A stretch of DNA of 64,000 nucleotides, from the IMG/VR virus record IMGVR_UViG_3300045988_034373, positions 64,001 through 128,000 of that record; one strand, given 5' to 3'. The notes under the pieces are model-generated. The model was not told where the DNA came from and ran no database searches. It saw only the letters and a program-made list of their open reading frames with translations. This DNA comes from a virus. Shown piece by piece: positions 8,454 to 53,781 of the stretch (position 1 is its first letter; each line of letters begins with the position of its first letter). A program made the translations under genes and the position numbers.

Positions 8454-9473
8454 ATGAAACTTGAATTTGAACCTACGATTACTAAACAATATTTATTAGA
8501 CAGAGCATCCCAAGAAACATATCTCGAATATTATTTAGGCATACCAGTTAAGAAGGGTTTGTTTAAATCACCTTTGAGAGCAGACAATAATCCCACTTGT
8601 TCCTTTTACAGGAATAAGAGTGGAGATATTGTCTTGAAGGATTTTAGTGGTGCATTCTATGGTAATTTCATTAGTGTGGTCATGTACAAATATGGCTTAA
8701 CTTATTATAAGGCACTAAGGATGATTGCCAATGACTTTGGTTACATTAAACATCCGAAACTTAAAAAGAATCCCAAACCTGTTACTATTAGTACTAATGA
8801 ACTCAAAGAGTGTAAGGAGGCTAATATACAGGTGGAAATTCAAGAGTTCTCTAAAGAGGAACTTGAATGGTGGATGCAATTTGGTATTACAGAGAAGATT
8901 CTGAAGAAATTTAGAGTCTTCTCTTGTAAGACCGTATTTCTAAATGGTAATTTCTTTACAACATCTACTAAGAGTTGTCCAATATTTGGATATTATAGAG
9001 GTAAGAATGAGAACGAAACAGAATTGTGGAGAATCTACTTCCCCTTTAATAAGAAGCATGAGTTAAGATTTCTATCTAATTGGAAGTCTTTCCTATTACA
9101 AGGTGCTAAACAACTCCCTAAAGAAGATGATGTCTTAGTAATAACTAAGAGTCTAAAGGATGTTATGACATTATATTCTCTCGGAATTACAGCTATTGCT
9201 CCCAATTCTGAGAATCTATTCCTAACTGAAAGTCAATTCTCTAAATTGAAGAGTAGATTTAAGAGGATTATTGTATTCTATGACAATGACTTAACTGGTC
9301 TTCATAATATGAATAAGATTAGAAAGTCATTTGATGTAGAGTGTATGTGGATTCCTCGTAGTTATGGAGCTAAAGATATATCAGACTTTCATAAGATGTA
9401 TGGACGAGAGAAAACTTTAGAATTGATAGAATATGCCAGAAGAAGTAGTAGAGAAACCAAAGAAGAAGCGTAA
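8454..9473 (+). CDS. DNA primase (Toprim-type, DnaG/P4-like)
   Basis: N-terminal block is SPLRADNNPTCSFY. Toprim DxD is IIVFYDNDLTG. The usual Toprim Glu is not obvious (VLVITKSLKD). Confidence 0.55.
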   Translation: MKLEFEPTITKQYLLDRASQETYLEYYLGIPVKKGLFKSPLRADNNPTCSFYRNKSGDIVLKDFSGAFYGNFISVVMYKYGLTYYKALRMIANDFGYIKHPKLKKNPKPVTISTNELKECKEANIQVEIQEFSKEELEWWMQFGITEKILKKFRVFSCKTVFLNGNFFTTSTKSCPIFGYYRGKNENETELWRIYFPFNKKHELRFLSNWKSFLLQGAKQLPKEDDVLVITKSLKDVMTLYSLGITAIAPNSENLFLTESQFSKLKSRFKRIIVFYDNDLTGLHNMNKIRKSFDVECMWIPRSYGAKDISDFHKMYGREKTLELIEYARRSSRETKEEA

Positions 9474-9822
9474 TGGTGCATATGCCAGACGCAAGGGAAA
9501 CAATTATGAGTTGAAGATTATTAAGGAACTTACTGAGTTAGGATATGCTGGGCTAAAGTCAGCTAGGTCTGAATCCAAGAACTTGGATAATGACAAGATT
9601 GATATAGCAGAGACTATAGACCATCTGCCTTGCTATGTTCAATGTAAGTGTACCAAGAATACTCCTTCCATTTCAGAAATCATTAAATCATGTCCTCGTA
9701 AGGATAGACCATTAGTGATAGTATGGAATAAGCAAATTGATAAAGAAGTCAACATGGCTTCTGACGGACAGTATGTTATAATGTCCAAAGAATTCTTTTA
9801 TGATTTAATAAGGAAGAATTAA
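9433..9822 (+). CDS. PD-(D/E)XK nuclease, Hjc-like Holliday-junction resolvase
   Basis: Pattern is RKGNNYELKIIKELTELGY ... DKIDIAE ... YVQCK (E ... D ... QxK). Confidence 0.5.
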   Translation: MPEEVVEKPKKKRNGAYARRKGNNYELKIIKELTELGYAGLKSARSESKNLDNDKIDIAETIDHLPCYVQCKCTKNTPSISEIIKSCPRKDRPLVIVWNKQIDKEVNMASDGQYVIMSKEFFYDLIRKN

Positions 9823-9824
9823 TT

Positions 9825-10556
9825 ATGAACATATTAGTTATACCAGTACAGACTGTTAGTGATATTATTACTAATAGTTCATCTGAGGTATTCATCTTAG
9901 ATACTGGAAAGACGTGTGAAGAAGTCAATACTATGCTTCACACATTCACCTCTGGGTTTGACTATCCAGAGGTTTTTTCATTAAAGGACTTCCGTGAGTG
10001 GCGTAAGAAACTTCGTAATGGTGAGATTGAAGATGATTGGAGTTATCCAGGTTCTATCTTCAGTATAGCCGATGGATGGTTCAAGGACCCCGAAGATGAA
10101 GAAGACCTTCTCAATTTAAGAATGGATTTCTTATTTGACCCATTTGAAACCATAGACTATGGTGGGGGGTTTGTAGCACATGGCTATAGTTCAAGTTATA
10201 AAGAGCCTATCCAGGATGCCTTCATTGAGTATTTAAACAGTAATTGGGATAAGGTCGGACATGACATTAACCGAGTTCTAGCAGAGGAAGAGGACGATGC
10301 TGTTAGTAGTATTGATTGGAAGACTCTACGCAGACACAACTACTGGTTTAAGAATGCTCTAGAGGATGTCACTAAGGAGTTCTTGAAGAACTACGATGGT
10401 CCTAAACCTACAGTGTGGAATGTTAGTAAGCGTGAGGATGTGAGAGAACTGGATGGTAAAGTATTGGTTGTAAGTAATGACGACAATAGTATCCCTTATG
10501 ATACTTGGGATAAGATTAATAGTTTATTTAATGGTTGGAATGTGCATTTAGGATGA
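9825..10556 (+). CDS. TNSSSE-motif paralog 1 (243 aa, acidic), unknown function
   Basis: N-terminus is MNILVIPVQTVSDIITNSSSEVFILD. This block is shared with the next three genes. Confidence 0.65.
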   Translation: MNILVIPVQTVSDIITNSSSEVFILDTGKTCEEVNTMLHTFTSGFDYPEVFSLKDFREWRKKLRNGEIEDDWSYPGSIFSIADGWFKDPEDEEDLLNLRMDFLFDPFETIDYGGGFVAHGYSSSYKEPIQDAFIEYLNSNWDKVGHDINRVLAEEEDDAVSSIDWKTLRRHNYWFKNALEDVTKEFLKNYDGPKPTVWNVSKREDVRELDGKVLVVSNDDNSIPYDTWDKINSLFNGWNVHLG

Positions 10557-11056
10557 TATTTAAACTGCAATCTTTAAACGATGTAGTAACTAACAGTAGT
10601 ATGGAAGTCTATCAAGAGGCTACACAATACACTGTTGATGCTGTAAAAGATATTATTAATGTAATTTTAAAGATTAGTGGTTCAGATAAGTCCTGTGACG
10701 ACTTATTCACCGTTAGTATTAACTATGAGGATATGCTTGAGTCATATTTCGAAGACATCCTTGATAAGTCTGATATTGATGAGGAATATCTAGGTATGAT
10801 TGAAGAAATCAGAAGTCGTAAAGATGACTCTGGACGGTTTATCAGTGATTCTGAAGCATATGCTGAATTAGTTAAGACTGGTCTAGTAGGTGATGTAGTG
10901 CCCACCATTGAGGAATATGTTGGGAACTTTGATAGTGATTGGAGATATCCAACTACTGAGGTGTCTATAATTCCTAAAGGTGAAGCAGAACGTTCTGACA
11001 TCGCCATACTAAACAAAATAAATGACTTATTCTGTGTCGAAGCGTGCTACAACTAA
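10553..11056 (+). CDS. TNSSSE-motif paralog 2 (167 aa), unknown function
   Basis: ATGA overlap with paralog 1. N-terminus is MIFKLQSLNDVVTNSSMEVYQEA. The track start at 10535 is also possible. Confidence 0.6.
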   Translation: MIFKLQSLNDVVTNSSMEVYQEATQYTVDAVKDIINVILKISGSDKSCDDLFTVSINYEDMLESYFEDILDKSDIDEEYLGMIEEIRSRKDDSGRFISDSEAYAELVKTGLVGDVVPTIEEYVGNFDSDWRYPTTEVSIIPKGEAERSDIAILNKINDLFCVEACYN

Positions 11057-11486
11057 GTACTACTTAATACCAATTCAGTCATTCTCTGACATTATAACTA
11101 ATAGCTCTTCTGAAACTTATATCGTTGATACTTCCTATACTGCCAAAGCATTAGAAGAGGTATTAGAGGGAATACACAAGAAATATGAGGGTGAAGAGTT
11201 CTATTCTGGAGAATGCTGTGGGATTGAAGTAAGTGACTTTAAAGAGTACTGTAGAGAAGCCTATATGTGGGATGAACACGATGAGAATGGAACTCCATTT
11301 GAGTCTAAGGAAGACTACGTAGCTTGGGTTTTCGAAGTACCTTTAAGTGTTGCTAAAGGCTGTCTGGTTGTTAGAGTCGATTATGGATACCATGCTGTAG
11401 ATGAATTTTTAACTAAGAATTTCAAATGTATAGCATCTGACCATGAAAGAGTTAAAGACTCAGACGGGCGCATTGTTAAGAATTAA
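11022..11486 (+). CDS. TNSSSE-motif paralog 3 (about 150 aa), unknown function
   Basis: Contains ...KYYLIPIQSFSDIITNSSSETYIVD. Start is ATG11022 or GTG11034. Confidence 0.6.
   Translation: MTYSVSKRATTKYYLIPIQSFSDIITNSSSETYIVDTSYTAKALEEVLEGIHKKYEGEEFYSGECCGIEVSDFKEYCREAYMWDEHDENGTPFESKEDYVAWVFEVPLSVAKGCLVVRVDYGYHAVDEFLTKNFKCIASDHERVKDSDGRIVKN
11076..11116 (+). repeat. DNA-level repeat encoding the QSFSD..TNSSSE block (copy in paralog 3)
   Basis: cagtcattctctgacattataactaatagctcttctgaaac. By my count, 33 of 41 nt are identical to 11491-11531. Confidence 0.7.
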
Positions 11487-11760
11487 TATCCAGTCATTCT
11501 CTGATGTAACTACTAATAGCTCTTCGGAGATATTCTGTACCATTAGTGGAGCTGACTTGGATGCTATCTATGAACTACTAAAGCCATTATTCCCAGCGGG
11601 ATACGGCTATTCTGATATGGAACCTACACTATATAAGGAGGATGGTAGTGTTGCACTATGGCTTCCTTATGGTGATGCACCAACAGAATTTTACAAAGCA
11701 GGATTAGAAGCAATTCTTGATAAGTACTTTAAAGATAATTATACAATAGAATACGAATGA
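11443..11760 (+). CDS. TNSSSE-motif paralog 4 (about 100 aa), unknown function
   Basis: Contains ...LLRINIQSFSDVTTNSSSEIFCT. An alternative TTG start lies at 11473. Its stop overlaps the radical SAM start (ATGA). Confidence 0.6.
   Translation: MKELKTQTGALLRINIQSFSDVTTNSSSEIFCTISGADLDAIYELLKPLFPAGYGYSDMEPTLYKEDGSVALWLPYGDAPTEFYKAGLEAILDKYFKDNYTIEYE
11491..11531 (+). repeat. DNA-level repeat encoding the QSFSD..TNSSSE block (copy in paralog 4)
   Basis: cagtcattctctgatgtaactactaatagctcttcggagat. More diverged copies lie at 9849-9893 and 10568-10612. Confidence 0.7.
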
Positions 11761-12680
11761 AAGATTGGACAAGCTGGGGAACTAAGGTAAGAGAGTTTCC
11801 TGCACATAACTATAAGGCTATATGGGCAAATCTAAAGACTATCCGAGTAGGTACTGGGGTAGCTAAGGAATTACCGCCTGATATGGCTGAGTTTTATGAT
11901 GTTGGAATTAATACTGTATGTAATGCTGAATGTGACTTCTGTTATGTGTCAGCAGGGCATGGTGGTGTTAACTATCCTGACATCTGTGAGACATGGAAGA
12001 AATGGATGTACGTATATCAATCTGAATTAAAGGATGGAATACTATACACAAGTAAGCCATTCCAGATTGCTATTGGTTCTACTGGAGAGCCAACTATGCA
12101 TCCAGACTTCTGTGAGTTCCTCGAAACAGTATATAATACTGGAGTAGTTCCTAATTACACCACTAATGGTCTTATTATAGCTAGAGACAATGTTAAGGGA
12201 GGAGAAATCCTTGCCTACACTAAGGAGTATGTTGGAGGAGTTGCTGTTAGTTTGGGTAATCCAAACATAAGACTCCAAGCACATAGGGCTATTAACAAGC
12301 TATTGACGTGGGGTGATACGAACGTAAATATTCATCATATCATATCTGATAAAGTATCCGTAGATGAGTTCTATGATACTGTAGTTAGGTATGGTAATAG
12401 TATTTACTATCATGTACTGTTACCTTTAATGCCTTCTGGTAGAAGCAATAAGGGTATTGAACCTAGTGTGTTTGAATATTTAGAAGAAATAATTCAGAAG
12501 CACGATATAAAGAATGCTGCATTTGGAGCACACTTTGTAGAGTATCTGAAGACTTCTAAGATTAAGACACATCTCTATCCGCCTGAATCGTTAAGCAAGA
12601 ATATTATTCTTACTAAGGATAAGGTACAAATAACTCCGAGTTCTTTTAATCTGACACCTATAAAGGTCATTCACGTATGA
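11757..12680 (+). CDS. radical SAM enzyme
   Basis: CX3CX2C cluster motif is VCNAECDFCY. SAM-binding-like block is GSTGEPTMHP, followed by YTTNGL. No C-terminal Cys-rich SPASM-like region is visible. Confidence 0.8.
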   Translation: MKDWTSWGTKVREFPAHNYKAIWANLKTIRVGTGVAKELPPDMAEFYDVGINTVCNAECDFCYVSAGHGGVNYPDICETWKKWMYVYQSELKDGILYTSKPFQIAIGSTGEPTMHPDFCEFLETVYNTGVVPNYTTNGLIIARDNVKGGEILAYTKEYVGGVAVSLGNPNIRLQAHRAINKLLTWGDTNVNIHHIISDKVSVDEFYDTVVRYGNSIYYHVLLPLMPSGRSNKGIEPSVFEYLEEIIQKHDIKNAAFGAHFVEYLKTSKIKTHLYPPESLSKNIILTKDKVQITPSSFNLTPIKVIHV

Positions 12681-13081
12681 CAACAACTGATGCAAGTCTA
12701 TTAGCATACGTGAAGAGTCTATTCCCTTTTAATACCGATAGAATACAGGACATCTCTAAGGAAGATGGAAAGCTGTTTATCGTCACCGATGATGATAGAA
12801 GGTTTATATTAAAGCTAGTTGAGATTGGACCAATCGCTGAACACTTCAACGCTGGAGAACACCAAACTCTGTTCTACTTTAATCCAGAAACTAAAGAGCC
12901 TGTATTTAGGAATAAGACTGCATATGAAACCGAGAAGGAAGCTATTCATGCTGCTATGGTTATTAATGTGCAGGATAAGACTATACACAAGAGGCAAGCT
13001 TATAAATGTAGCGTATGCCACAAGTGGCACGTAGGTAGAGGAAAGACTATACTCACAGATGAAGATAAAAAGAAAACTTAA
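12677..13081 (+). CDS. hypothetical protein with C-terminal CxxCHxxH knuckle
   Basis: ATGA overlap with the radical SAM stop. Contains ...AYKCSVCHKWHVGRGK. Confidence 0.55.
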   Translation: MTTTDASLLAYVKSLFPFNTDRIQDISKEDGKLFIVTDDDRRFILKLVEIGPIAEHFNAGEHQTLFYFNPETKEPVFRNKTAYETEKEAIHAAMVINVQDKTIHKRQAYKCSVCHKWHVGRGKTILTDEDKKKT

Positions 13082-13099
13082 AATTAAGCATAACATTCG

Positions 13100-13318
13100 A
13101 TGACAACTTACCTACTCCCATGTTATGGGGATGGTCATTGCTGGATTGAGAAGGTACGTGCAAGGAACTTCTCCGATGCTCAGCAGAAGTTTATAAATGC
13201 TTTTACAGAAGATTATGAGGATATTGACATTCCATCCGATTGGGAGGATTTAATCACTATTCTAAACACTCAAGCAGATATAGTAATTGGAGACATCTAC
13301 GACATAGAGGAGTTTTAA
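13100..13318 (+). CDS. hypothetical acidic protein
   Basis: 72-aa ORF in the series. Confidence 0.5.
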   Translation: MTTYLLPCYGDGHCWIEKVRARNFSDAQQKFINAFTEDYEDIDIPSDWEDLITILNTQADIVIGDIYDIEEF

Positions 13319-13320
13319 TA

Positions 13321-13485
13321 ATGATTGAATCTGAGCAACTTGCCCTATCCGCACTAAAATTTAGGTATCCTAACTACATAATCACCCATTCTACCCCAAG
13401 AACAAAGTGGGGCAACTTTGGATATTATGGTGAAGCTGCCTTACGATTTCATTATGAGCCTTCCTCACAAACTTATATTAGATGA
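13321..13485 (+). CDS. hypothetical protein (55 aa)
   Basis: ATG13321 lies directly after the upstream TAA (MIESEQLALSALKF...). The longer track ORF from 13240 overlaps the previous gene. Confidence 0.4.
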   Translation: MIESEQLALSALKFRYPNYIITHSTPRTKWGNFGYYGEAALRFHYEPSSQTYIR

Positions 13486-13982
13486 GAATAGGACTTGATA
13501 TTGACGATTGTCTAGCAGACTTCTGGGGAGCATATTGTAAGTACTTCGATACAGACAATAACCCTAAAATGCTGGAAGACCACATTATAACACGTAATGT
13601 ACAGCAGATTTTAAGTAAAGACAGAGATTTTTGGTTGAACCTTGAAGTTAAGAACAGACCTGACTTCATACCTGAATTGTATTGCACTAAGCGAGTAAAC
13701 AATAAGGCATGGACTAAGGAATGGCTAAGACGTAATGGGTTCCCTGATAGACCAGTCTATCAAATGATTTATCAGCATGGTAATAAGGCTGATATGATTA
13801 AGGGTAGGGTGGATATTTTTATTGATGATTCACTATCTAATGTGTTAAAATGTCAGAAGTCTGGACTACCAACGCTGTTGTTTCATACAGAGAGGACGGC
13901 AGACTTTCCTATGTTTAAAGTATTCTCACTAAATAAGGATGAGATAATTGACTCATATCTGTTTATGAAGAAGTATGCATAG
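13482..13982 (+). CDS. HAD-family 5'(3')-deoxyribonucleotidase-like phosphatase
   Basis: N-terminal block is RIGLDIDDCLADFWG (DxD nucleophile block, as in NT5C-type enzymes). A later block is IFIDDS. Confidence 0.6.
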   Translation: MRIGLDIDDCLADFWGAYCKYFDTDNNPKMLEDHIITRNVQQILSKDRDFWLNLEVKNRPDFIPELYCTKRVNNKAWTKEWLRRNGFPDRPVYQMIYQHGNKADMIKGRVDIFIDDSLSNVLKCQKSGLPTLLFHTERTADFPMFKVFSLNKDEIIDSYLFMKKYA

Positions 13983-14994
13983 AAATGTTAAACTGATTCC
14001 ACTTCTTGACACTATACAACTCATTGAGATGAGTGACGAGGAATACTTTAGTGAAAAGTGGGCAGGATATATAAGCAACTCAAAGCTTGCATTAATTAAT
14101 CCAGCTCAAGACGGAAGTCCTCAGATTTATAAGGAAGGACTAAGTAAACACCCTAAGTATTCTGACTCTCTTGTGTTTGGCTCAGCAGTCCATGAATTAG
14201 TACTACAGCCAGGAGAATTTAAAGTAGCTGATAATGTTGATAGACCCACTGCTAAGATGGGAGCTATGGCAGATGAACTATACAAGACATTCCTTAGTAA
14301 TAAGGGTGTTGTATCAGATGATGATATTATAGCTGCATCTAACAAAATCGACTACTATAAAGGCAAAATGGATAGTATTAAGATTGAGAATGTTAAAGAC
14401 AAATGCATCAACTATTGGTGGGATAGAAGGGATTGGGAATCTGAGCATAATAACTCAGAGATTGAGCCAATCTATCTAGACCCTAAGTCAAGAGAGAAGT
14501 TACAGCTTTGTTTAGCATCTGTTGAGGCTAATAAAGAGGTGCAGGATTTATTACATCCAAAAGGAGTATTCGAGGAGCCTATCTCCATGAATGAAGCAGC
14601 TCTGTTTATGGATGTGAAGGCTGAACATGAGGGTAAGGAGACAATCCTTAAACTTAAAGGTAAGCTAGATAATTTCACCATTGATACTGAAACTAATGAA
14701 GTAGTTCTTAATGACCTTAAGACTACTGGGCATTGGTTGATTGACTTTGGTGATTCATTTAAGAAATACCATTACAATAGACAGATGGCAATGTATGCGT
14801 GGATGCTACGTTCTTACGTACAGAAGCAATACAATATAAAGCCTTCTAGTCTGATGGCGAATATGCTATTAGTATGCACTGTTCCAGATTATAGAGCTGG
14901 AGTATTTAGGGTAACTAATGGTGAGATTCGTAAAGGTTTCTTAGAATTTAAAGATTTGCTGCAGAGAGTGGCATACTGCGAACTATATGATTGA
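13975..14994 (+). CDS. PD-(D/E)XK (RecB/Cas4-like) exonuclease
   Basis: Motifs are GSAVHELVL, DNFTID, LNDLKTT (D/ExK) and the RecB-family block YNRQMAMYAWML (QxxxY). Confidence 0.6.
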   Translation: MHRNVKLIPLLDTIQLIEMSDEEYFSEKWAGYISNSKLALINPAQDGSPQIYKEGLSKHPKYSDSLVFGSAVHELVLQPGEFKVADNVDRPTAKMGAMADELYKTFLSNKGVVSDDDIIAASNKIDYYKGKMDSIKIENVKDKCINYWWDRRDWESEHNNSEIEPIYLDPKSREKLQLCLASVEANKEVQDLLHPKGVFEEPISMNEAALFMDVKAEHEGKETILKLKGKLDNFTIDTETNEVVLNDLKTTGHWLIDFGDSFKKYHYNRQMAMYAWMLRSYVQKQYNIKPSSLMANMLLVCTVPDYRAGVFRVTNGEIRKGFLEFKDLLQRVAYCELYD

Positions 14995-15355
14995 ATCTTT
15001 TCTTATGGAAGCATGGGAGCCATCTTACCAAGACCTTGAGAATTATTACAGAGAATATTATAGTTTAGGTAACTTAAATTGTGATATTGGGAGCAAGTTT
15101 GCACTTATATCCCTTATTTGTTTCCTTACTAAGCAAGCAAGGATTAAGAATCCTGATGCAACCTGTTATCTCGTAATAATGAAGATTATTGATGGGGAGG
15201 AGTCACAGCATGACTTAAAATTCATTAGAGGGTTATCTGTTGTCTGTACAGACATGATGAAGCACTGTAATGAGTTCCTAACCTTTGATATGAAATCATC
15301 TAAGGAAATGGTTAAGAAGATTAAGGAAATTCTACACACTTATTTACCTTTCTAA
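14987..15355 (+). CDS. hypothetical protein
   Basis: 122-aa ORF that overlaps the upstream stop. Confidence 0.5.
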   Translation: MIESFLMEAWEPSYQDLENYYREYYSLGNLNCDIGSKFALISLICFLTKQARIKNPDATCYLVIMKIIDGEESQHDLKFIRGLSVVCTDMMKHCNEFLTFDMKSSKEMVKKIKEILHTYLPF

Positions 15356-15606
15356 TGACCGAAGAAGTAAGAATATCTTGGGGCGATAAGGTTGCTAAGA
15401 GGTATGAATCAAATCAAAGGATTGTTGAGATTCTATCCGAGTTAGTGGAGAAGTTTCCCCAATGGAGATTCCAACAAATCTTACAGAACGTAGATATTGC
15501 GTCCAGGAATGGAGAGGATTTGTTCTACGAAGAGAGTTATGACACTCTAACTACAATGACCAATAATGCAATAGTTAGGTCAATTTTATCTCATACTGCC
15601 AATTAA
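15355..15606 (+). CDS. hypothetical protein
   Basis: 83-aa ORF with a TAATG overlap. Confidence 0.5.
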   Translation: MTEEVRISWGDKVAKRYESNQRIVEILSELVEKFPQWRFQQILQNVDIASRNGEDLFYEESYDTLTTMTNNAIVRSILSHTAN

Positions 15607-20051: not shown

Positions 20052-22184
20052 ATGCTAGTAGTAAAACGAAACAAGACAGTACAGCCCTTCGACTGGGGTA
20101 AGATTGACTTAGCAATCACTAAAGCATTCCATGCTGTTAATGAACCTATTGATATGGATATTCTTAGTGATGTAAAAGATGAATTATACTTTAACAACAT
20201 TATCTCTGTAGAAGAGATTCAAGACCAAATAGAGAAAGCTCTTATGGCTTGTGATTATTATAATGTTGCTAAAGCATTTATCTTGTATAGGCAGAAACAA
20301 GCTGAACTTAGAACTTTAACGAATAAGAAACAGTTCATTAAAGACTATGCTAAGGCTAGTAATGCCGCCACAGGTAGTAAGTATGATGCTAATGCTAATG
20401 TTACTGAAAAGAACATTGTAACTCTTAATGGTGAACTCTTCAAGGGTGATATTATTAAGGTTAATCGTACCATACTTACCGATAAGATTAGAGAAATGTA
20501 TGGCGAGGATTTAGCTAAGGAGTATATCCAGATGCTAGAATCACACGTATTATATAAACATGATGAGACTAGTATTATGCCATATTGTGTGGCTATTACT
20601 ATGTATCCATTTCTGTTGGAAGGTTTGCAGCCTATTGGGGGTTTATCTGCTAAACCTAAGAACTTAGACTCATTCTGTGGAATGTTTGTAAATCTAGTAT
20701 TTGCAATTAGTTCACAGTTTGCAGGTGCAGTAGCTACTGGTGAGTTCCTAATGTATTTTGATTACTTTGCTCGTAAAGAGTGGGGTGATGATTACTGGAA
20801 ATATGCTGATGCAAACTGCCAATTAAGGTTTACTACTAATCCTACATTGGAGGGTAATGATAAGCCTATAAATACAGCAGAAGTAACTAATATGCTAACT
20901 ATTGAGAAGGTGATTGAGCAGAAGTTCCAGCAGATTGTATATTCAATCAATCAGCCCGCTGCTGCTCGTAACTTCCAATCAGTATTCTGGAATATCAGCT
21001 ATTTTGATAAGTACTACTTTGAAGGCTTATTCGGAGAATTTGTATTCCCCGATGGGACTAAGCCAATATGGGATTCATTAAATTGGTTACAGAAGAAATT
21101 CATGAGTTGGTTTAATGAGGAACGTACTAAGTGTATCTTAACATTCCCAGTTGAGACTGTAGCTCTATTAACTGATGGTGAGGATATTCGTGATAAGGAA
21201 TGGGCTGACTTTACAGCAGAAATGTATAGTAAAGGTCATTCATTCTTCACTTATACTTCTGATAGTGCAGACTCATTATCATCTTGTTGTAGATTGCGTA
21301 ATGAAGTTAGTGACAATCAATTCTCCTATTCATTAGGTGCTGGAGGTATTGCTACTGGTAGTAAGTCTGTAATGACTCTCAATATCAATAGGCTAGTACA
21401 GGACGCAGTTAATAAGGGATATGATATGATTGACTATCTACGCTCTCAGGTTCAGAAAGTTCATAAATTCCAAACAGCATATAATGAATTGCTAAAGGAT
21501 TATCTAAAGGATGGTCTACTAACAGTTTATACTGCTGGATTTATTAATCTGAAGAAGCAATACCTAACTGTAGGTGTTAATGGTGTTATTGAAGCTGCTG
21601 AATTCTTAGGAATTGAGGTAAGTGATAATGACACCTATAGAGAGTTTATGCAATCTATTCTAAAGACCATCAGTGATGAGAATAGAAAGGCTAAGACTAA
21701 AGAACTTATGTTTAATACTGAGTTCGTTCCTGCTGAGAATCTAGGAGTTAAGCACGCTAACTGGGATAGGAAAGATGGCTACTTTGTACCTAGAGATTGC
21801 TATAATAGCTATTTCTATGCAGTAGAAGATACATCATTAACTATCTTTGATAAGTTCAAACTTCATGGTAAAGAGTATGTAAAGTATTTGGATGGAGGAA
21901 GTGCATTGCACATGAATCTTGAAGAACACCTTACCAAAGACCAGTATAGAAACCTATTAAAGGTTGCAGCTGTCAATGGTACTAATTACTTTACCTTTAA
22001 TATTCCAAACACTATCTGTAATGACTGTGGGCACATAGATAAGAGATACTTGCATGAGTGTCCTAAGTGTGGAAGCAAGAATATAGACTATGCTACTAGG
22101 ATTATTGGGTATCTAAAGAGAATTAGTAACTTTAGTGAAGCTAGACAGAAAGAAGCTAGTAAACGTTATTACTATAAACAATAA
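20052..22184 (+). CDS. nrdD: anaerobic ribonucleoside-triphosphate reductase (class III)
   Basis: N-terminal ATP-cone is VVKRNKTVQPFDWGKI. SCCRL is present. C-terminal Zn site is CNDCGH...CPKCGS. Glycyl-radical loop is TRIIGYL. Confidence 0.95.
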   Translation: MLVVKRNKTVQPFDWGKIDLAITKAFHAVNEPIDMDILSDVKDELYFNNIISVEEIQDQIEKALMACDYYNVAKAFILYRQKQAELRTLTNKKQFIKDYAKASNAATGSKYDANANVTEKNIVTLNGELFKGDIIKVNRTILTDKIREMYGEDLAKEYIQMLESHVLYKHDETSIMPYCVAITMYPFLLEGLQPIGGLSAKPKNLDSFCGMFVNLVFAISSQFAGAVATGEFLMYFDYFARKEWGDDYWKYADANCQLRFTTNPTLEGNDKPINTAEVTNMLTIEKVIEQKFQQIVYSINQPAAARNFQSVFWNISYFDKYYFEGLFGEFVFPDGTKPIWDSLNWLQKKFMSWFNEERTKCILTFPVETVALLTDGEDIRDKEWADFTAEMYSKGHSFFTYTSDSADSLSSCCRLRNEVSDNQFSYSLGAGGIATGSKSVMTLNINRLVQDAVNKGYDMIDYLRSQVQKVHKFQTAYNELLKDYLKDGLLTVYTAGFINLKKQYLTVGVNGVIEAAEFLGIEVSDNDTYREFMQSILKTISDENRKAKTKELMFNTEFVPAENLGVKHANWDRKDGYFVPRDCYNSYFYAVEDTSLTIFDKFKLHGKEYVKYLDGGSALHMNLEEHLTKDQYRNLLKVAAVNGTNYFTFNIPNTICNDCGHIDKRYLHECPKCGSKNIDYATRIIGYLKRISNFSEARQKEASKRYYYKQ

Positions 22185-22399: not shown

Positions 22400-22746
22400 C
22401 AGGTATAGAGGATGGATGGGTATGTGATGTAGAGTTAGCTAAGAATATTATATTAGCTCATTTCAGTACATCAAGATACTACCTTAGCCCAGTCTACGGA
22501 GATAAGTCTATGGATGATTGGCTAGATAAAGTTGAGAATAACCTACAGGACTTTGACGGAGACTTCTCAATTATGAGAGAAGGTGGATGGTTCTTAGGTG
22601 GTCCAGATGGTTGGTCTGGCTTTATCATTTGTACATTAGACACATGGCTGAAAGAAATGGATGGATGTGACCCTAATGAAGAGGTTTTATCTGTATATGA
22701 AGTAGATGGGAAGCCTACTGTATTTGTCTTACATGAATCTGATTGA
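22396..22746 (+). CDS. hypothetical protein
   Basis: ATG22396 overlaps the upstream TGA (MTGIEDGWVCDV...). The track start at 22348 is less likely. Confidence 0.5.
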   Translation: MTGIEDGWVCDVELAKNIILAHFSTSRYYLSPVYGDKSMDDWLDKVENNLQDFDGDFSIMREGGWFLGGPDGWSGFIICTLDTWLKEMDGCDPNEEVLSVYEVDGKPTVFVLHESD

Positions 22747-22747
22747 T

Positions 22748-23233
22748 ATGCTGAAGTATGTTAATTATGATATAGTCTTCCAGGAGATACCAAATGAAAC
22801 TACACTTGCTATTAACATCTCAAACTGTCCTTGTCATTGTAAGGGCTGTCATAGTTCTTACTTGGCAGAGGATATTGGAAACTTTCTTGACCTCGGAGCA
22901 TTAATGCGTCTAATAGACAAGAACGAAGGTATCACTTGTGTTGCCTTTATGGGTGGGGATTCAGACACACAATCTGTTAGTATGTTAGCTGGTATTGTCC
23001 AAACTAAAGGACTATTAACAGCTTGGTATAGTGGTAGACAAGAGTTATCTAAGGATATTGATATTAAGAACTTTAACTTTATAAAGTTAGGTCCTTATAT
23101 TGAAGAATTAGGTGGCTTAAAGAGTCCTACAACTAACCAAAGAATGTATGAGGTTAAAATGAGTAGAGAGTTGGGTGAAGATGGTAATCCTGTTTATGGT
23201 CTGGAAGATATTACAAACTTATTCTGGAAATGA
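22748..23233 (+). CDS. nrdG: anaerobic RNR activating enzyme (radical SAM)
   Basis: Motif is NCPCHCKGCHS (CX3CX2C). Size and the position after nrdD fit. Start is ambiguous (22706, 22733 or 22748). Confidence 0.85.
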   Translation: MLKYVNYDIVFQEIPNETTLAINISNCPCHCKGCHSSYLAEDIGNFLDLGALMRLIDKNEGITCVAFMGGDSDTQSVSMLAGIVQTKGLLTAWYSGRQELSKDIDIKNFNFIKLGPYIEELGGLKSPTTNQRMYEVKMSRELGEDGNPVYGLEDITNLFWK

Positions 23234-28881: not shown

Positions 28882-30243
28882 ATGCAATTAACTCAATCAC
28901 CAAAATTTAACAGAAATTATGCTGCAAAGATTGTAGAGATTAAGGAGTTTATTAAACATCCTAATCCAAAGTGTGAGAGATTAAAATGTTGTACAATCGA
29001 CGGCTATTCTATTGCTGTAAGTATTGATACCAATCCTGGTACATATGTTTACTTCCCTATAGAATGTGCTATTGATGATAGGTTCCTATCTGCCAATAAT
29101 CTCTTTAGAGATAAGATTAAGAACTTCGACAAAGAACAGGCTGGATTCTTTGAAGATAACTGTAGGGTGAAGATAATCAAACTACAAGGTTATCCTTCAG
29201 AAGGGTTCATTGCTCCGATTACCTACCTATATAACTGGCTTACTTTAATTGGTAAGAAGAATGAGGTGGTACATAAGGTTGCTCCTGGCACTGAGTTTGA
29301 CTCTGTGGATGGAGAAATCCTATGCAGGAAGTATGTTCCTAAGACTACTTATACTCCTGGTCAACCAAGAGAAGGTGGCAAAGTTAGGAAGAAACTTAAT
29401 AGAGTAAAGAAAGTAATTGATACTCAATTTAGGTTTCATTATGACACTACTCTTATTAAGAAGTGTCCGTCAGTCATTCATCCCAATGACATTATAAGCA
29501 TTACTGCTAAGGTTCATGGAACCTCTGGTATATCTGCTTATGTATTGTGCGAAAGACCTAAGAAGTGGTATGAGAAAGTATTTGAGTTTCTAACTCGTAA
29601 AGAGATAGATGATACTCGATATGATTATCTGTGGTCTTCAAGGTCCGTAGTTAAGAACCCATATTACAATGAAACTACTAGTGGTGGTTTCTACGGAGTG
29701 GACGTATGGAAGTATGCAGATGATGTTGTTAGACCTCATCTACAGAAAGGAATGACAGCTTACTACGAGATAGTAGGTTATCTACCAAATGGTGGTGCAA
29801 TTCAGAAGTTAGGTGGTAAAGCATTTGATTATGGATTTGAACCTCCGAGAAGTGCAGATAGGTATAAGTATGGAGAGAACTTTGGAATACAAATCTATCG
29901 TTTGACCTATACTAACCCTGACGGACGTGTATATGAGTTTAGTGCAAGACAGGTGCAACAATGGTGTGCCAAAGAAGGCTTAAAGCCTGTAGAGGAATAT
30001 TACTATGGCTATGCTAAAGACTTATATCCAGACTTAGATATTGCTGAGCACTGGAATGAGAACTTCCTACAGAAGTTAGCTAGTGATAAGAATTTCTTCA
30101 TGGAGTGTGAATCTCCAACCTGTAACAATAAAGTATCTCATGAAGGCATTGTTATTAAGATTGAAAACTCTCTATCCGAAGCCTATAAGCTGAAGTGTAT
30201 TAAATTCTTGGAAGGAGAATCTAAATCACTGGATAAGGGTTGA
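28882..30243 (+). CDS. RNA ligase (Rnl2/DRB0094-like nucleotidyltransferase)
   Basis: Motif I is AKVHGTSG (compare KIHGTN in T4 Rnl2). Motif III-like is YYEIVGY, motif IV is HEGIVIKI and motif V is YKLKCIKF. Confidence 0.7.
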   Translation: MQLTQSPKFNRNYAAKIVEIKEFIKHPNPKCERLKCCTIDGYSIAVSIDTNPGTYVYFPIECAIDDRFLSANNLFRDKIKNFDKEQAGFFEDNCRVKIIKLQGYPSEGFIAPITYLYNWLTLIGKKNEVVHKVAPGTEFDSVDGEILCRKYVPKTTYTPGQPREGGKVRKKLNRVKKVIDTQFRFHYDTTLIKKCPSVIHPNDIISITAKVHGTSGISAYVLCERPKKWYEKVFEFLTRKEIDDTRYDYLWSSRSVVKNPYYNETTSGGFYGVDVWKYADDVVRPHLQKGMTAYYEIVGYLPNGGAIQKLGGKAFDYGFEPPRSADRYKYGENFGIQIYRLTYTNPDGRVYEFSARQVQQWCAKEGLKPVEEYYYGYAKDLYPDLDIAEHWNENFLQKLASDKNFFMECESPTCNNKVSHEGIVIKIENSLSEAYKLKCIKFLEGESKSLDKG

Positions 30244-30491
30244 AGTGGACATTGAAACTGAATCATAAAGTGAAATTTAAGCTTGAATATGTAATGGAAG
30301 TGGATGATTTGGAATTGCTTGAGTTAGTCAATGACTATCAAGAGCGTTCTGATGAACCCACTTTCAATACATTAGACGACATTCCAGAGGCTCTAATGAT
30401 AGAAGCCTTAGATGAAGCTAATTACATAGAAGACGAGATTAATGATTATATGATGGTAGAGGACATCTCAATTACTAAACTTGTTAAATAA
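30240..30491 (+). CDS. hypothetical acidic protein
   Basis: TTG start overlaps the ligase TGA. An internal ATG start is possible. Confidence 0.45.
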   Translation: MKWTLKLNHKVKFKLEYVMEVDDLELLELVNDYQERSDEPTFNTLDDIPEALMIEALDEANYIEDEINDYMMVEDISITKLVK

Positions 30492-30802
30492 TGAAACGGT
30501 TTCTAATACACGTTAGCACCTACTGGTGTGGAATGGACAACACATTCAGGGCAATGGCTGAGAGTGAGTTGGATTTATATGATACAGCTCAAGACTTAGC
30601 TTATGAGAACTTCCAATCCTATGGGTGCGAAGCCGATATAGCTGAAGAAGAGGGCTATGACCCAGACGAAATGGAAGATTCGGACTGGGACAAGCTGTGG
30701 GAGACAGTTGATGAATCTCAGTACTATAACTTCACTATTGAAGAGTTCGAAGGAACTAATGAAGAGTGGGAAGAGTACGGAGGAGAAATCTATAACGCAT
30801 AA
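30491..30802 (+). CDS. hypothetical acidic protein
   Basis: 103-aa ORF with a very acidic C-terminal half (DPDEMEDSDWDKLWETVDE...). Confidence 0.5.
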   Translation: MKRFLIHVSTYWCGMDNTFRAMAESELDLYDTAQDLAYENFQSYGCEADIAEEEGYDPDEMEDSDWDKLWETVDESQYYNFTIEEFEGTNEEWEEYGGEIYNA

Positions 30803-31560
30803 TGGAAGATTTTAAATTCTACGAAGTTGGTGGTAAGATACGTGATGAACTATTAGGTCTTACTAACAAAGACGTTGATTACGTAGCTGTGCCTACAGAG
30901 GCAGTCTATAGTAAAATTCACCCATGTGAAGCTCAGCTTAGTCCAGCTCAACTAATGTTCAAAGCATTAAAGAGCTACTTAGAAGAGCAGAAGTTTGAAA
31001 TCTTCTTAGTAACTCCAGAGTGCTACACTATACGTGCTAAATTCCCAGAAGGGTATAAGTATCAAGGTGTGGCAGACTTTGTAATGGCTAGGAAAGAAGT
31101 AGGATATGTCCCAGGTACTAGGACTCCTATTGTAGAGCCAGGAAACCTCTATGATGATTTATCACGTAGAGATTTTACTGTTAATGCGATGGCTAAAGAC
31201 CCTGATACTGGAGAGATTATAGACTACTTTGGTGGTATGGAAGACTTAAAGGATAGGATTCTAAGAACCCCTCTTGACCCAGTTGTAACCTTCGATGATG
31301 ACCCTTTAAGGATAATCAGGGGTGTTAGGTTTGCTGTTACTAAAGGGTTTGACTTTAGCGATGAGGTTCATTCAGCTATAGAGAATTATGATTACTATAC
31401 TAAGATGAAAGTAGTCTCTGAGGAGAGAATTAGGGAAGAGTTACTTAAATGCTTTAAGTATGATACTCATACTACGCTGATGTGGCTTTTCCTTGTAGGC
31501 TTAGATGAATATATCTTTAACGAAACCAATATCTGGCTTAAGCCAACTAATGAGAAATGA
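30802..31560 (+). CDS. tRNA nucleotidyltransferase (CCA-adding enzyme / PolyA-pol head domain), short form
   Basis: Motifs are GGKIRDELLGLTNKDVDYV (GGxVRDxLLG..DxD), RRDFTVNAMA and DPLRIIRGVRFA. Confidence 0.8.
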   Translation: MEDFKFYEVGGKIRDELLGLTNKDVDYVAVPTEAVYSKIHPCEAQLSPAQLMFKALKSYLEEQKFEIFLVTPECYTIRAKFPEGYKYQGVADFVMARKEVGYVPGTRTPIVEPGNLYDDLSRRDFTVNAMAKDPDTGEIIDYFGGMEDLKDRILRTPLDPVVTFDDDPLRIIRGVRFAVTKGFDFSDEVHSAIENYDYYTKMKVVSEERIREELLKCFKYDTHTTLMWLFLVGLDEYIFNETNIWLKPTNEK

Positions 31561-31907
31561 CGGAGTATAAAGTTCCAACTGACTACGAACTTGATGCATT
31601 AGCTGAAGATTATGTGTGTTCTCTAAATGACGATGAGCTGCCTATAAGGGAGGAAGACTTAACTGAAGAATGTTTGAGAGATATCCTCAATGGCAGTGGA
31701 TATGAGTTTGTAGAAGGGCAAATGAGTGACCTAATAGGTTATATATTATCTAGCTCTGAAGCTGCTTATAACCAAGTTAAAGATGAGGCAATATGCGATT
31801 TTAAGTGTTCACTAGACAGAGTTATCTCAGATGCAAGTAGGGTACTGTCCGATGAGGACAAGTTAAAGATTATGATTGAAGTGGCTAGTAGCTTCTGCTA
31901 CACATAA
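31557..31907 (+). CDS. hypothetical acidic protein
   Basis: 116-aa ORF with an ATGA overlap. Confidence 0.5.
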   Translation: MTEYKVPTDYELDALAEDYVCSLNDDELPIREEDLTEECLRDILNGSGYEFVEGQMSDLIGYILSSSEAAYNQVKDEAICDFKCSLDRVISDASRVLSDEDKLKIMIEVASSFCYT

Positions 31908-31917
31908 ACCATGATGG

Positions 31918-32838
31918 ATGGAAACAAGACAGTTAATAATCTGTAGAGGTATTCAAGGCTCAGGTAAATCTACTTGGGCTAAGCAATGGTGTCATGAAGA
32001 CCCAGAGCATAGAGTTAGATTCAATAACGATGATGTTCGTAATATGTTAGGTGACTATTGGGTTCCTAACAGAGAGAAGGTTGTTACTGCAACTTATAAC
32101 ACTGTACTAGCTTATAGTATGGAGAAAGGTTATAATATTGTAGTTGATAACATGAACCTTAATCCTAAGACTTGTACTGAGTTAGAGAAGATGGTTAAGG
32201 ACTTTAACGAGAATTATATCTATGATTGGAAGTATGAAGTTGAATACAAAGACTTCTTCATCCCAGTTGAAGAGTGTATTCGTCGTGATGCTATGAGACC
32301 TAATCCAATAGGAGAGAAGGTTATTAAAGCAACCTGGAGAAGGTATCGTGATTTTATTATCCAAGAAGATATTAAAGGTATGTTAAAGAGAGCACCTAAG
32401 CATGTAGATGGCGGACGTCCTGTTATATTAGTAGACATGGACGCTACATTATGTCTAAATACCACTGGTAGACCTTACTTCGGAGAAGGCGCAGCTGAGG
32501 GTATGCTGGATGATATAGCTATCGAAGGTACTTGTATGCTTGTTAGACGTATGTATGAGAAGTGTAAGGTATTCATTGTTACTGGTAGGGAAGGTACTCC
32601 AGAAATCATAGCTGCCACTAAGAAGTGGTTAGCTAAGCATGATGTTGTTGTCGATGAGTTATTCTTTAGACCAGTTAAGGATTATAGTCCTGGAGCTGAT
32701 TGTAAGAAGAAAATCTATGAGGATAATATCAAAGGTAAGTATAATGTTCAATTCGTTCTTGAGGATAACTATAAGTGTGTCAAGATGTGGAGAGAACAAG
32801 GCTTAGTATGCTTGCAACCTAATGAAGGAAAGTTCTAA
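31918..32838 (+). CDS. polynucleotide 5'-kinase / 3'-phosphatase (T4 Pnkp-like)
   Basis: N-terminal P-loop is CRGIQGSGKSTWA. The C-terminal HAD phosphatase has ILVDMDATLC (DxDxT) and IVTGREG. Confidence 0.8.
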   Translation: METRQLIICRGIQGSGKSTWAKQWCHEDPEHRVRFNNDDVRNMLGDYWVPNREKVVTATYNTVLAYSMEKGYNIVVDNMNLNPKTCTELEKMVKDFNENYIYDWKYEVEYKDFFIPVEECIRRDAMRPNPIGEKVIKATWRRYRDFIIQEDIKGMLKRAPKHVDGGRPVILVDMDATLCLNTTGRPYFGEGAAEGMLDDIAIEGTCMLVRRMYEKCKVFIVTGREGTPEIIAATKKWLAKHDVVVDELFFRPVKDYSPGADCKKKIYEDNIKGKYNVQFVLEDNYKCVKMWREQGLVCLQPNEGKF

Positions 32839-51970: not shown

Positions 51971-53781
51971 GAATAACTTCAAATATAGATAAGCTACAAC
52001 AGGGTGGAGGTATTCCACCCTTTGTTAGCTATACTAATGTTCCAAGACCTCAACCCACTGCCCCTTATAGTACATCAGATACTAAACAAGCAGCTGGAGA
52101 AGAATCAGAAGGAGGGTTTGGTTTACTAGATAAGAACATGGTGAAGATGCTTTATGAGAAGGGCTTACCAAGTGATGTGGAGCAATTCTTAGACCAATCT
52201 GGGTTGTTCTCTGAATCCATAATGTCTAATCCATTTGAAAAGACAAACGGAGCTGCTCAGTATAAAGCATTATTAAAGATATTACCTAAGATAGCTATGA
52301 ATAAGGAAGAGTACAATAGAGCTATACAAGAAGCTACTAAGAATAATGCTCTTAAAGAAACAGCTATTGATACAGATGGCAGAGTATTTGCCATTAGCCC
52401 AGACGGACAAGTTACTAAGAAATTTATAAGCCAGTTAGAGGAAGGGGAACAGACTCTAACAGTTGGACAAATGGCTGAGAATAGAGCCTATAGTCAAGGT
52501 TTGGCATTTAACAGTAATGCTATTACAGCTATTGCTAACAGTACAAGCATTGAGCAAATAAATAAGACTATATGGGAAGCGATTAAGAATTTAGGTTCCA
52601 ATACAAGAGCCAATGAATACTTTAGGTCTAAGGACGAAAGGAAAGCTAAGGCTGGAATTGACAAACTATTGGAAGAAGGAGCTGATGGTGTTTATAAGAT
52701 TAACTCTAAGTCTATAACCCAAGATGCTCAAGCTAAATATGCTTTAAACTATATATTATCAACATTACCATCTAATCAGAAGGTGTTATTACAGGATTAT
52801 GCAAGAAAGTCTGGATTAGATTTGAAGACTGGTCCACTACAAATTATCACTAGTATGATACAATCTGGTATTAGTTCTACAGAAGAAATGGGAGTTAGTT
52901 ATGACAAACAAGCTACCAATGGTGCTAATACTGATGCAAATGGTAATAAGAAGACTAGGGCATTTGATATTCCTATGATGATTGTAACTGGTGATGGTCT
53001 TCCTAAAGAGAATGCCAGAATTAGCTTTGGAAGTAATTATGCTATTGATGTACAAGCACAAAGATTGCCATTCATTCCAGGTAGTGATGGCAAGCCTATT
53101 GGTCCGACTTCCTTAATGGGGGCTTTAAGTGGTCAGTTAGGTAGTGTAGTTAATAAAGATGCTGTACACGTTGGTAACCAAAGACTTGATGCTACTAAGC
53201 TAAATCAACTATACTACGATGGTACTGGAGTGTCTACAATGGAGTTACCTTATAAGTTGGATGAGAATGGACAAGCAGTTCCAGACTTTGATGTTATAGG
53301 TGCTTATAAGGCAGCTGTAGATGCAATCAATAAGGAAGGTAAGGATGTTACTAAGGCTCAAGTAAATCAAATATTCCAAGAACGAGGATTGAATAGATAT
53401 TTTAATGAAGATGGAAGTTTAAATAGGGATAACTTTATGAGGTTTGCTGGTATATCAGTTATTGGCGATGATGAAACCTTTGAACACCCTGATGATAACT
53501 CCGACTTCTTTATGCCTATTACTGATAATAGGTTGACAGCACAGATAAGTGCAACACTAGGTACTAAGTCAAACCCTATGGATATGGGAGACCTATACAG
53601 AACTATTGCTTATGTACCTATTTATGACTCTCCGAGTCTAGCAGGTGCAGCATCTGGTAACTTCTCATGGATTAAGGATGAGGGGGCTATGATGGAAATA
53701 GCAAAAGAACAGCAACTCCGTAACGCTAGACAGGCATATAACAACAATATAACTAAAAGTCAATTATTAAATGGACAATAA
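51967..53781 (+). CDS. large protein (604 aa), probable virion-associated
   Basis: ATGA overlap with the upstream gene. The N-terminus carries IDKLQQGGG. No enzymatic motif seen. Confidence 0.8.
   Translation: MRITSNIDKLQQGGGIPPFVSYTNVPRPQPTAPYSTSDTKQAAGEESEGGFGLLDKNMVKMLYEKGLPSDVEQFLDQSGLFSESIMSNPFEKTNGAAQYKALLKILPKIAMNKEEYNRAIQEATKNNALKETAIDTDGRVFAISPDGQVTKKFISQLEEGEQTLTVGQMAENRAYSQGLAFNSNAITAIANSTSIEQINKTIWEAIKNLGSNTRANEYFRSKDERKAKAGIDKLLEEGADGVYKINSKSITQDAQAKYALNYILSTLPSNQKVLLQDYARKSGLDLKTGPLQIITSMIQSGISSTEEMGVSYDKQATNGANTDANGNKKTRAFDIPMMIVTGDGLPKENARISFGSNYAIDVQAQRLPFIPGSDGKPIGPTSLMGALSGQLGSVVNKDAVHVGNQRLDATKLNQLYYDGTGVSTMELPYKLDENGQAVPDFDVIGAYKAAVDAINKEGKDVTKAQVNQIFQERGLNRYFNEDGSLNRDNFMRFAGISVIGDDETFEHPDDNSDFFMPITDNRLTAQISATLGTKSNPMDMGDLYRTIAYVPIYDSPSLAGAASGNFSWIKDEGAMMEIAKEQQLRNARQAYNNNITKSQLLNGQ

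Follow-up and report, generated by a model that had tools for sequence, protein, structure and literature searches.

To our knowledge, radical S-adenosylmethionine (SAM) enzymes that mature proteins or peptides are known almost entirely from cellular pathways, those for cofactors and those for peptides that are made by the ribosome and modified after translation (RiPPs). Two other systems are worth keeping in mind. In the prochlorosins, one lanthipeptide enzyme, ProcM, serves about 30 ProcA peptides; and in phage T4, the internal proteins IPI, IPII and IPIII carry a capsid targeting sequence. Here we analyze a locus in a stretch of viral DNA of 64,000 nucleotides, positions 64,001 to 128,000 of the IMG/VR record IMGVR_UViG_3300045988_034373 (this whole stretch is the window in what follows). 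Four overlapping genes in the window, w1 to w4, encode small acidic proteins that begin with a common block of sequence, the tag, and they run directly into the gene of a radical SAM enzyme.

We describe this arrangement as a self-contained, phage-exclusive module with two components: one radical SAM enzyme with a single [4Fe-4S] cluster, and one to six small acidic proteins carrying the tag. Does the enzyme act on the tag? We would put it at about even that the enzyme docks the tag and modifies the T-N-S-S loop at its center, and that it does so on a variable set of phage proteins.

The tagged proteins and the enzyme as a unit

The association can be evaluated in both directions. A scan of IMG/VR by peptide pattern alone results in 75 viral loci, and 70 of them have a homolog of the window enzyme on the same strand. 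Of the other five, two lie where the contig ends, L015 is a close relative's deletion variant, and the last two (L058 and L072) are weighed below. The reverse scan, seeded only with divergent radical SAM sequences, results in 79 loci in which the enzyme is 38-100% identical to the seed. All 79 include between one and six open reading frames (ORFs) with the tag, and in 78 of them these are found just upstream. The architecture of tag ORF plus enzyme is present in more than 150 viral loci. A preliminary description of the window, made from its letters alone, had proposed that the paralogs and the enzyme work together, and this near-obligate reciprocal co-occurrence across very divergent phages indicates that they are one functional unit; the block is not one that occurs mostly without a radical SAM neighbor.

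The geometry of the operon is also conserved. Of 70 loci made non-redundant at 80% enzyme identity, 63 have their tag genes exclusively upstream of the enzyme, 2 exclusively downstream, and 2 in both places, with a median distance of 4 nt between tag gene and enzyme gene. The copy number goes from 1 to 6 with a mode of 3, and the window has four. The order of precursors and then enzyme, with tight coupling, thus holds well beyond the window. No third gene family is shared across 71 non-redundant loci, where the best neighbor family reaches 12 because of synteny within the gut clade, and no downstream gene family is common to them. The CxxCHxxH zinc-knuckle protein of 134 aa that follows the enzyme, and whose overlap with it the preliminary description had noted, is conserved within the lineage only, and it is not in the conserved unit. 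Unrelated genes replace it in relatives with a 69% identical enzyme (in L001, an unrelated protein of 101 aa and an ADP-ribosylglycohydrolase), and its only matches are weak ones to PHROGs of unknown function (E=1.4e-3).

In the window itself (Table 1), the four overlapping + strand genes with their common N-terminal block are real, and the peptides quoted for them earlier are exact; the N-terminal peptide of w4 includes IQSFSDVTTNSSSEIF. A TTG at 10535 is an alternative start for w2, and would give 173 aa. ATGA start/stop overlaps are verified at 10553 (w1/w2), and also at the two junctions noted before, 11757 (w4/enzyme) and 12677 (enzyme/134-aa gene), while the pairs w2/w3 and w3/w4 overlap by 35 and 44 nt. 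The proteins had been called acidic, and the isoelectric point is 4.1-5 for nearly all of 194 relatives.

The tag is far from a chance resemblance. A six-frame translation of the window has four matches to the pattern D[ILV][ILVT]TNSSxE; composition alone predicts about 0.0002, and 200 shuffles gave zero. Among the four genes the conserved tag codons show synonymous differences, which places the constraint on the protein and rules out a DNA- or RNA-level repeat as the source of the block.

The consensus block for the four paralogs is h-x-I-x-I-[Q/H]-S-h-x-D-h-I-T-N-S-S-[S/T]-E-h-[F/Y], where we number positions from the aspartate, D0. We have measured conservation on 269 unique tag sequences. 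T+3 is 99% conserved, and N+4, S+5 and S+6 are each at 100%. They are followed by S-3 (97%), D0 (93%), I+2 (91%) and E+8 (78%); one subfamily has V or T in place of this glutamate. The residue at +7 is either S or T, and the one at +10 either F or Y. At position -4, 48% of the tags have H, 46% have Q and 4% have K, and the states across genomes are Q, H, K, D, E and I/L. Positions -9 to -5 are alternating hydrophobics, consistent with a β-strand. The logo has no invariant Gly, and no Pro or Arg at the spacing found in substrates of the anaerobic sulfatase maturase anSME. D0 is residue 9-22 in almost all of the tagged proteins.

The preliminary description considered an N-terminal block of about 25 aa as the only common element. 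This was nearly right in that the bodies are otherwise different, and too short in extent. Profile-profile comparison with hhalign shows that the similarity continues for 24-28 residues past the motif (one strand and one helix) before the remainder becomes unrelated, and for this reason we take the common module as about 50 aa: a β-strand, [Q/H]-S-x-x-D, h-I-T-N-S-S-[S/T]-E, a second β-strand, and a helix. The tag profile has no relative in the PDB. A few members have two tag modules in one polypeptide (P0403, of 332 aa, P0311, P0338, P0374 and P0395, with the second tag for example at residues 162-211), and these are probably fused tandem paralogs.

Past the module, BLAST assigns each of the bodies of w1 to w4 to a different cluster, and these four clusters are conserved in 23-51 loci each. 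The body subfamily of w1 is present in 46 loci, and the genomes concerned have Q, H, D or N at position -4; that of w2, the most widespread, is present in 51 loci of Q, H and K types. The smallest tagged proteins have only 70-105 aa. A set of 114 diverse tagged proteins gave no match to any Pfam or PHROG model, and the paralogs have no match in Pfam, PHROGs, NCBIfam or PADLOC.

The enzyme and how it may read the tag

The enzyme has what defines a radical SAM protein: the CxxxCxxC motif, whose cysteines hold the [4Fe-4S] cluster, a GGE-like SAM motif, with GSTGEPT and YTTNG also present, and the partial TIM-barrel core. Its match to the Pfam model PF04055 (E=2.5e-5) reaches 24.9 bits, where the gathering score is 29.5, and the cluster cysteines C55, C59 and C62 are 96-100% conserved in the family. 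The AlphaFold2 model has a predicted local distance difference test (pLDDT) score of 87, and Foldseek aligns it to many radical SAM structures with probability 1.00. The best PDB neighbor is SuiB with its bound precursor peptide (E=7e-9, template modeling score 0.58), followed by DesII, MoaA, NifB, EpeE, BlsE, RlmN, Mmp10 and PqqE. SuiB, EpeE, PqqE and Mmp10 act on peptides or proteins. Sequence searches report generic radical SAM similarity only, the enzyme profile finds nothing useful among PDB sequences, and a Foldseek search against viral models finds only other uncharacterized radical SAM proteins.

No cysteine beyond CxxxCxxC is conserved in 57 members of the family, and the C-terminal 180 residues of the window enzyme include zero Cys. 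Since only the three cluster cysteines are conserved, we assign the enzyme a single [4Fe-4S] cluster and no SPASM/twitch domain. The NCBIfam models for SPASM/twitch proteins score 16-27 bits versus cut-offs of 170-650, and membership in the anSME or SPASM families is rejected by scores far under the cut-offs and by the absence of auxiliary cysteines. A RiPP recognition element (RRE), the PqqD-like winged helix that binds the leader, was not found either: Pfam reports no match besides PF04055, and the model gives the N-terminal extension three β-strands and none of the three helices that an RRE would have. This family-specific three-stranded sheet has the signature NY..h...GKT.R.

The preliminary description had named nucleotide-modifying clades as a place where the enzyme could turn out to belong, and we find no clustering with QueE, NrdG or viperin. 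An NrdG/PflA activase is rejected since there is no model match, and since the phage encodes a separate NrdG beside NrdD: that ORF matches the NrdG model TIGR02826 with 156.9 bits (cut-off 151.7). For viperin/pVip, the model NF038283 gives 27 bits versus a cut-off of 180, and the PADLOC pVip match covers only positions 6-86 of a profile of 257. QueE is not among the NCBIfam matches and has Foldseek rank 39, and no neighbor families recur, where the 7-deazaguanine pathway would call for FolE, QueD, QueC or DpdA. The preliminary description recognized no named family in the motif, and the family indeed matches no named one.

The enzyme gene shows variants of its own. In a sub-clade (L188-L190, at about 7000-7980 in contigs of 151-356 kb) the cluster motif is CX4CX2C, such as CTTGKCNFC, in place of CX3CX2C. 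An intein is inserted directly before C62 in L057 (about 13987-15402) and L071 (about 11362-12285), with junctions ...CPY|CFTENT... and ...NGILVHN|CYQD. In L036 (12374-14524) an insert of about 1.2 kb splits the gene behind FQIAIG, and within it a 319-aa ORF resembling a GIY-YIG homing endonuclease is at 12785-13744; a group I intron was rejected as the nature of the insert, since Rfam has no match there to introns of group I or II. Split enzyme genes are also found in L041, L048, L080 and L160-L162.

The evidence that the enzyme reads the tag comes from how the tag changes. Position -4, and rarely D0 or T+3, vary between genomes, yet they are uniform across the paralogs of one genome, and identical body subfamilies occur in Q-, H- and K-type genomes. 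As an example, in L100 D0 has been replaced by S three times, with codons TCA, TCA and AGT, and in L136 T+3 has been replaced by S three times, with codons AGT, TCA and AGC. These parallel changes within a genome use both families of Ser codons, and that points to selection by a shared partner and not to recent gene conversion.

Which residue of the enzyme could be that partner? We have scanned all 307 columns of the enzyme for covariation with an anomalous state of the tag, defined as loss of D0 in half or more of a genome's paralogs, or a K at -4. The top column is K27, in the N-terminal sheet, with p=9.8e-8 in a Fisher test that ignores phylogeny; the next column has 2e-3. K27 deviates in all five anomalous genomes (T in L100, L073 and L078, R in L097, V in L070) versus 1 of 91 normal ones. 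The nearest relatives of L073, L100 and L097 keep K27, which implies at least four independent events. The motif thus appears to be read by the enzyme, as supposed in the preliminary description, and the evidence in these alignments for a contact between D0 and K27 of the N-terminal sheet is good but not conclusive.

The recognition positions drift and covary, and T-N-S-S stays constant, 99-100% invariant while enzyme identity falls to about 25-35%. This contrast suggests that the flanks are for docking, and that T-N-S-S is the site of the chemistry or a contact to the cofactor.

Substrate, subunit, or something else

In the mechanism that we favor, one operon would be translated with the tagged proteins first and the enzyme last. 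The tag would dock, through its exposed N-terminal strand and its acidic D0, on the N-terminal β-sheet of the enzyme around K27, and docking would put the T-N-S-S loop at the SAM/[4Fe-4S] site, where the 5'-deoxyadenosyl radical would take a hydrogen atom from one of the T-N-S-S residues. The resulting post-translational modification would mature or activate the whole set of proteins, and the variable bodies would then bring the modified loop to different targets. The sequences themselves show the anatomy, the reciprocal co-occurrence, the gene order, the constraint at the protein level, the concerted changes within genomes, and the D0-K27 covariation; direct binding, the tag being the substrate, radical chemistry on T-N-S-S, and the biological role are what we infer. 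We favor a substrate because of the operon with precursors and then enzyme, the many tagged proteins per enzyme, the exposed tag in the w4 model, and the SuiB-like fold. Because the enzyme has no auxiliary cluster and no conserved cysteine for this purpose, the options for the modification include epimerization with a hydrogen donor other than Cys, radical dehydration or fragmentation of Ser, or a protein radical.

As for the role, the acidity of the proteins, their flux in copy number, their mosaicism and their dispensability make host takeover or counter-defence the most plausible one. A bolder version, which we hold tentatively, is that this is a virus-exclusive system of post-translational modification, in which a minimal radical SAM enzyme installs a new modification on T-N-S-S and so arms fast-evolving, recombining effectors against the targets or defences of the host. 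Such a modification might for instance be a D-residue, a stable radical, or an electrophile of the dehydro or aldehyde kind.

Several observations weigh against modification of the tag by the enzyme. L189 has a K-type tag and keeps K27, which weakens the strict rule that K at -4 means loss of K27, and L182 keeps K27 with D0 replaced by N; both add to the caution that the Fisher test needs. L058 and L072 carry the motif without an enzyme within the fetched flank, and in L015 a natural deletion has removed array and enzyme, so that the module is dispensable at least sometimes. The enzyme is without the RRE and the SPASM/twitch auxiliary clusters that are typical of most peptide-modifying radical SAM enzymes, and the small-molecule enzymes DesII, MoaA and NifB score about the same as SuiB in Foldseek. 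Finally, the AlphaFold2 model of w4, which we count in favor, calls for caution: in it, residues 28-104 form a β-α-β-β-α-β ferredoxin-like body with pLDDT of about 80, and residues 4-26, including IQSFSDVTTN, have pLDDT <50; this low value for the tag comes from a shallow alignment of 24 homologs. The w4 model has no significant PDB neighbor in Foldseek, only generic ferredoxin-like folds with E>0.06.

The analogy to RiPPs and protein maturases in the preliminary description survives in part. The order of the operon, the reading of the motif, and SuiB as the closest fold all agree with it; SPASM maturases and anSME remain analogies only, as the auxiliary-cluster cysteines are not there.

The alternative that survives best, a doubtful one that we nevertheless take seriously, is that the tag is a docking peptide and the tagged proteins are interchangeable subunits or adaptors, which bind the enzyme by way of the tag to recruit or regulate it, while the enzyme acts on something other than the tag, such as a host protein, a nucleotide, RNA or DNA. 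Stable binding would explain the co-occurrence, the operon structure and the D0-K27 covariation equally well. The bodies are folded domains of varied architecture, as expected for specificity subunits, and both the lack of auxiliary clusters and RRE and the structural proximity of DesII, MoaA and NifB agree with an enzyme that works on something else. What speaks against adaptors is the pattern of conservation. A docking interface can drift, as -4 and D0 do, yet T-N-S-S is nearly invariant, a behavior that fits better with chemistry or a cofactor contact; and four small polar residues make an unusual binding anchor. Having up to six alternatives per enzyme, and genomes with only one of either main type, fits substrates at least equally well.

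It is improbable that S-x-x-D...T-N-S-S-x-E is a catalytic or ligand-binding loop, with the paralogs as enzymes or carrier proteins that work together with the radical SAM enzyme in a pathway of small-molecule or nucleic-acid modification. Invariant polar residues after a β-strand do recall phosphate- or metal-binding loops, and in the phage clade of the window the module is located among genes for nucleotide metabolism and RNA repair. However, that genomic context is not conserved beyond the clade, the copy number changes from 1 to 6, no Pfam match is found for any of 114 representatives, and the tag profile is without a PDB relative. Moreover, a common active site is unlikely because the bodies are unrelated past about 28 residues after the motif and some of the proteins have just 70-105 aa. 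The AlphaFold model leaves the motif outside of the w4 fold, not packed into it. A catalytic N-terminal loop had been the second suggestion of the preliminary description, and we find no support for it.

Last, we give very little credence to a sorting, packaging or degradation signal with an incidental radical SAM neighbor: tandem, polymorphic, recombining genes with a common N-terminus do recall the T4 internal-protein loci, and mosaics joining the N-terminus of one paralog to the body of another are common, but reciprocal co-occurrence of 79/79 and 70/75 across unrelated contexts cannot be incidental, the tag covaries with an enzyme residue, and the genes are in early or replication-type regions and not among structural genes.

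Distribution, genome context, and known systems

An exhaustive profile search finds 1,983 cluster representatives for the tag family (50% identity, E<=1e-3), almost always with the match at residues 1 to about 50. The enzyme has 971 relatives, all of them metagenomic. The close relatives of the window are human-gut metagenome contigs of about 180-190 kb, and the contigs with tag and enzyme, whose lengths lie between about 90 and 508 kb, represent many IMG samples. In 185,579 species genomes, the tag was found only on nine short contigs of metagenome-assembled genomes with inconsistent taxonomy, and not in isolate genomes; most simply, these nine contigs are mis-binned phage DNA. GenBank phages searched with the window DNA, the enzyme, w1, and a relative of 270 aa gave either no match or remote radical SAM proteins without tags, and literature searches found nothing relevant.

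The module lies in the part of the phage genome for replication, nucleotide metabolism and RNA repair (Table 1). Helicases and DnaB are found in its neighborhood in addition to the primase and the nuclease, and a dUTPase, a DNA ligase, a DNA polymerase and a thymidylate synthase are also in this region. The NrdD/NrdG pair, an anaerobic ribonucleotide reductase and its activase, agrees with a host that lives anaerobically in the gut. A few distant loci also have RNA ligase, RtcB or Pnk near the module; with each family in at most 3 of 71 loci, RNA-repair neighbors were rejected as an enriched partner. Very large ORFs lie toward the end of the window, and the 604-aa ORF between them has no PHROG match.

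A scan for promoters and terminators found nothing beyond chance. A single terminator-like hairpin came up, within the coding region of w1; chance alone would give 2.5 such sites, and it is probably not meaningful.

Table 1. Positions of the module and of other features in the window.
Feature	Position	Strand	Length	Remarks
Primase	8454-9473			Neighborhood of module
PD-(D/E)XK nuclease	9433-9822			Neighborhood of module
w1, TNSS-tagged acidic protein	9825-10556	+	243 aa	Tag block 9834-9899; D-x-x-T-N-S-S-x-E 9861-9887
Terminator-like hairpin	9948-9973			10-bp stem, then T-run
w2, TNSS-tagged protein	10553-11056	+	167 aa (from ATG)	Tag block 10553-10618; motif 10580-10606; TNSSME variant
w3, TNSS-tagged protein	11022-11486	+	154 aa	Tag block 11061-11126; motif 11088-11114
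w4, TNSS-tagged protein	11443-11760	+	105 aa	Tag block 11476-11541; motif 11503-11529
Radical SAM enzyme, single-cluster	11757-12680	+	307 aa	CNAECDFC / GSTGEPTMHP / YTTNGL
Enzyme N-terminal three-stranded β-sheet	11781-11849	+	residues 9-31	Family-specific; conserved R12, N18, Y19, K27, T28, R30; AlphaFold2 and alignment
Enzyme K27 codon	11835-11837
Enzyme cluster motif CNAECDFC	11919-11942	+		CxxxCxxC; C55, C59, C62
CxxCHxxH protein	12677-13081	+	134 aa	CSVCHKWH
NrdD with ATP-cone	20052-22184			Anaerobic ribonucleotide reductase
NrdG	22706-23233			Activase of NrdD
RNA-repair cluster	28882-32838
RNA ligase	28882-30243			RNA-repair cluster
tRNA nucleotidyltransferase	30802-31560			RNA-repair cluster
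Polynucleotide kinase	31918-32838			RNA-repair cluster
Very large ORF	47180-51970		1,596 aa
ORF between the very large ORFs	51967-53781		604 aa
Very large ORF	53771-62461		2,896 aa

Related loci show rearrangements of the array. In L015 (10001-10564) most of the array, the enzyme, and part of the next gene are lost; in L043 (10001-10378) the w1 tag is fused to the C-terminal third of the enzyme; and in L005 (7687-8004), a 95%-identical relative, w3 is missing and its N-terminus is fused to the body of w4. Mosaics of this kind, or truncated forms of 33-86 aa, are numerous among the database entries. The rearrangements in these three loci appear to come from recombination at or near the tag.

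If this reading of the module is true, there is a large family of maturases, with about 2,000 clusters when grouped at 50% identity, that is restricted to large uncultured phages of the gut and many other environments and is invisible to Pfam, PHROGs and NCBIfam. The enzyme and its tag could bring to light radical chemistry that is new for Ser, Asn or Thr, and the tag is a sequence handle by which hypervariable accessory proteins of phages can be picked out. Protein engineering could also profit from a minimal radical SAM scaffold that, without RRE or auxiliary clusters, would recognize a transferable tag of about 25 residues.

How does the module compare with what has been described? Uncharacterized radical SAM proteins of other large phages, Citrobacter phage IME-CF2, Vibrio phage D479 and Enterobacter phage phi5, have the same core fold, but identity is at most about 20-27%, they are outside of the TNSS family, and in D479 and phi5 no TNSS-tagged ORFs are found near them. 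The T4 internal-protein loci are alike in their tandem polymorphic genes, in a common short N-terminal segment, and in the mosaics that recombination there produces. They have no dedicated enzyme, whereas here the tag is coupled to, and covaries with, a radical SAM protein.

Enzymes that act on a short conserved loop in differing proteins are a closer parallel. The anSME/AtsB maturases convert C/S-x-P/A-x-R to formylglycine, and the activases PflA/NrdG act on an RVxG loop. The motif here is T-N-S-S and neither C/S-x-P-x-R nor RVxG, and there are no auxiliary clusters, in contrast to anSME; with PflA/NrdG the module has in common the single cluster, but its tag has no invariant Gly. The prochlorosins are alike in having one enzyme, a conserved N-terminal part, hypervariable remainders, and a copy number that differs by genome. 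The class of the enzyme and the chemistry are different. In the prochlorosins, modification falls on the variable core and the leader is cut off; in the module, only the N-terminal block has common, invariant residues, and each body is a fold of its own.

The radical SAM maturases of RiPPs, SuiB/SuiA (streptide), PqqE/PqqA and EpeE/EpeX, are the most similar, with the precursor gene or genes directly upstream of the enzyme, an N-terminal recognition segment, and the SuiB fold. The module differs from them in having no RRE/PqqD and no SPASM/twitch cysteines, and in being found only in phage contigs. Its tagged proteins are folded and have 70-300 aa, as opposed to short peptides, and its invariant residues are within the conserved segment itself. 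A conserved N-terminal segment together with a dedicated radical SAM enzyme is the logic of known maturase systems; the testable features that define the named families are absent here, and there is a substantial chance that the chemistry is new.

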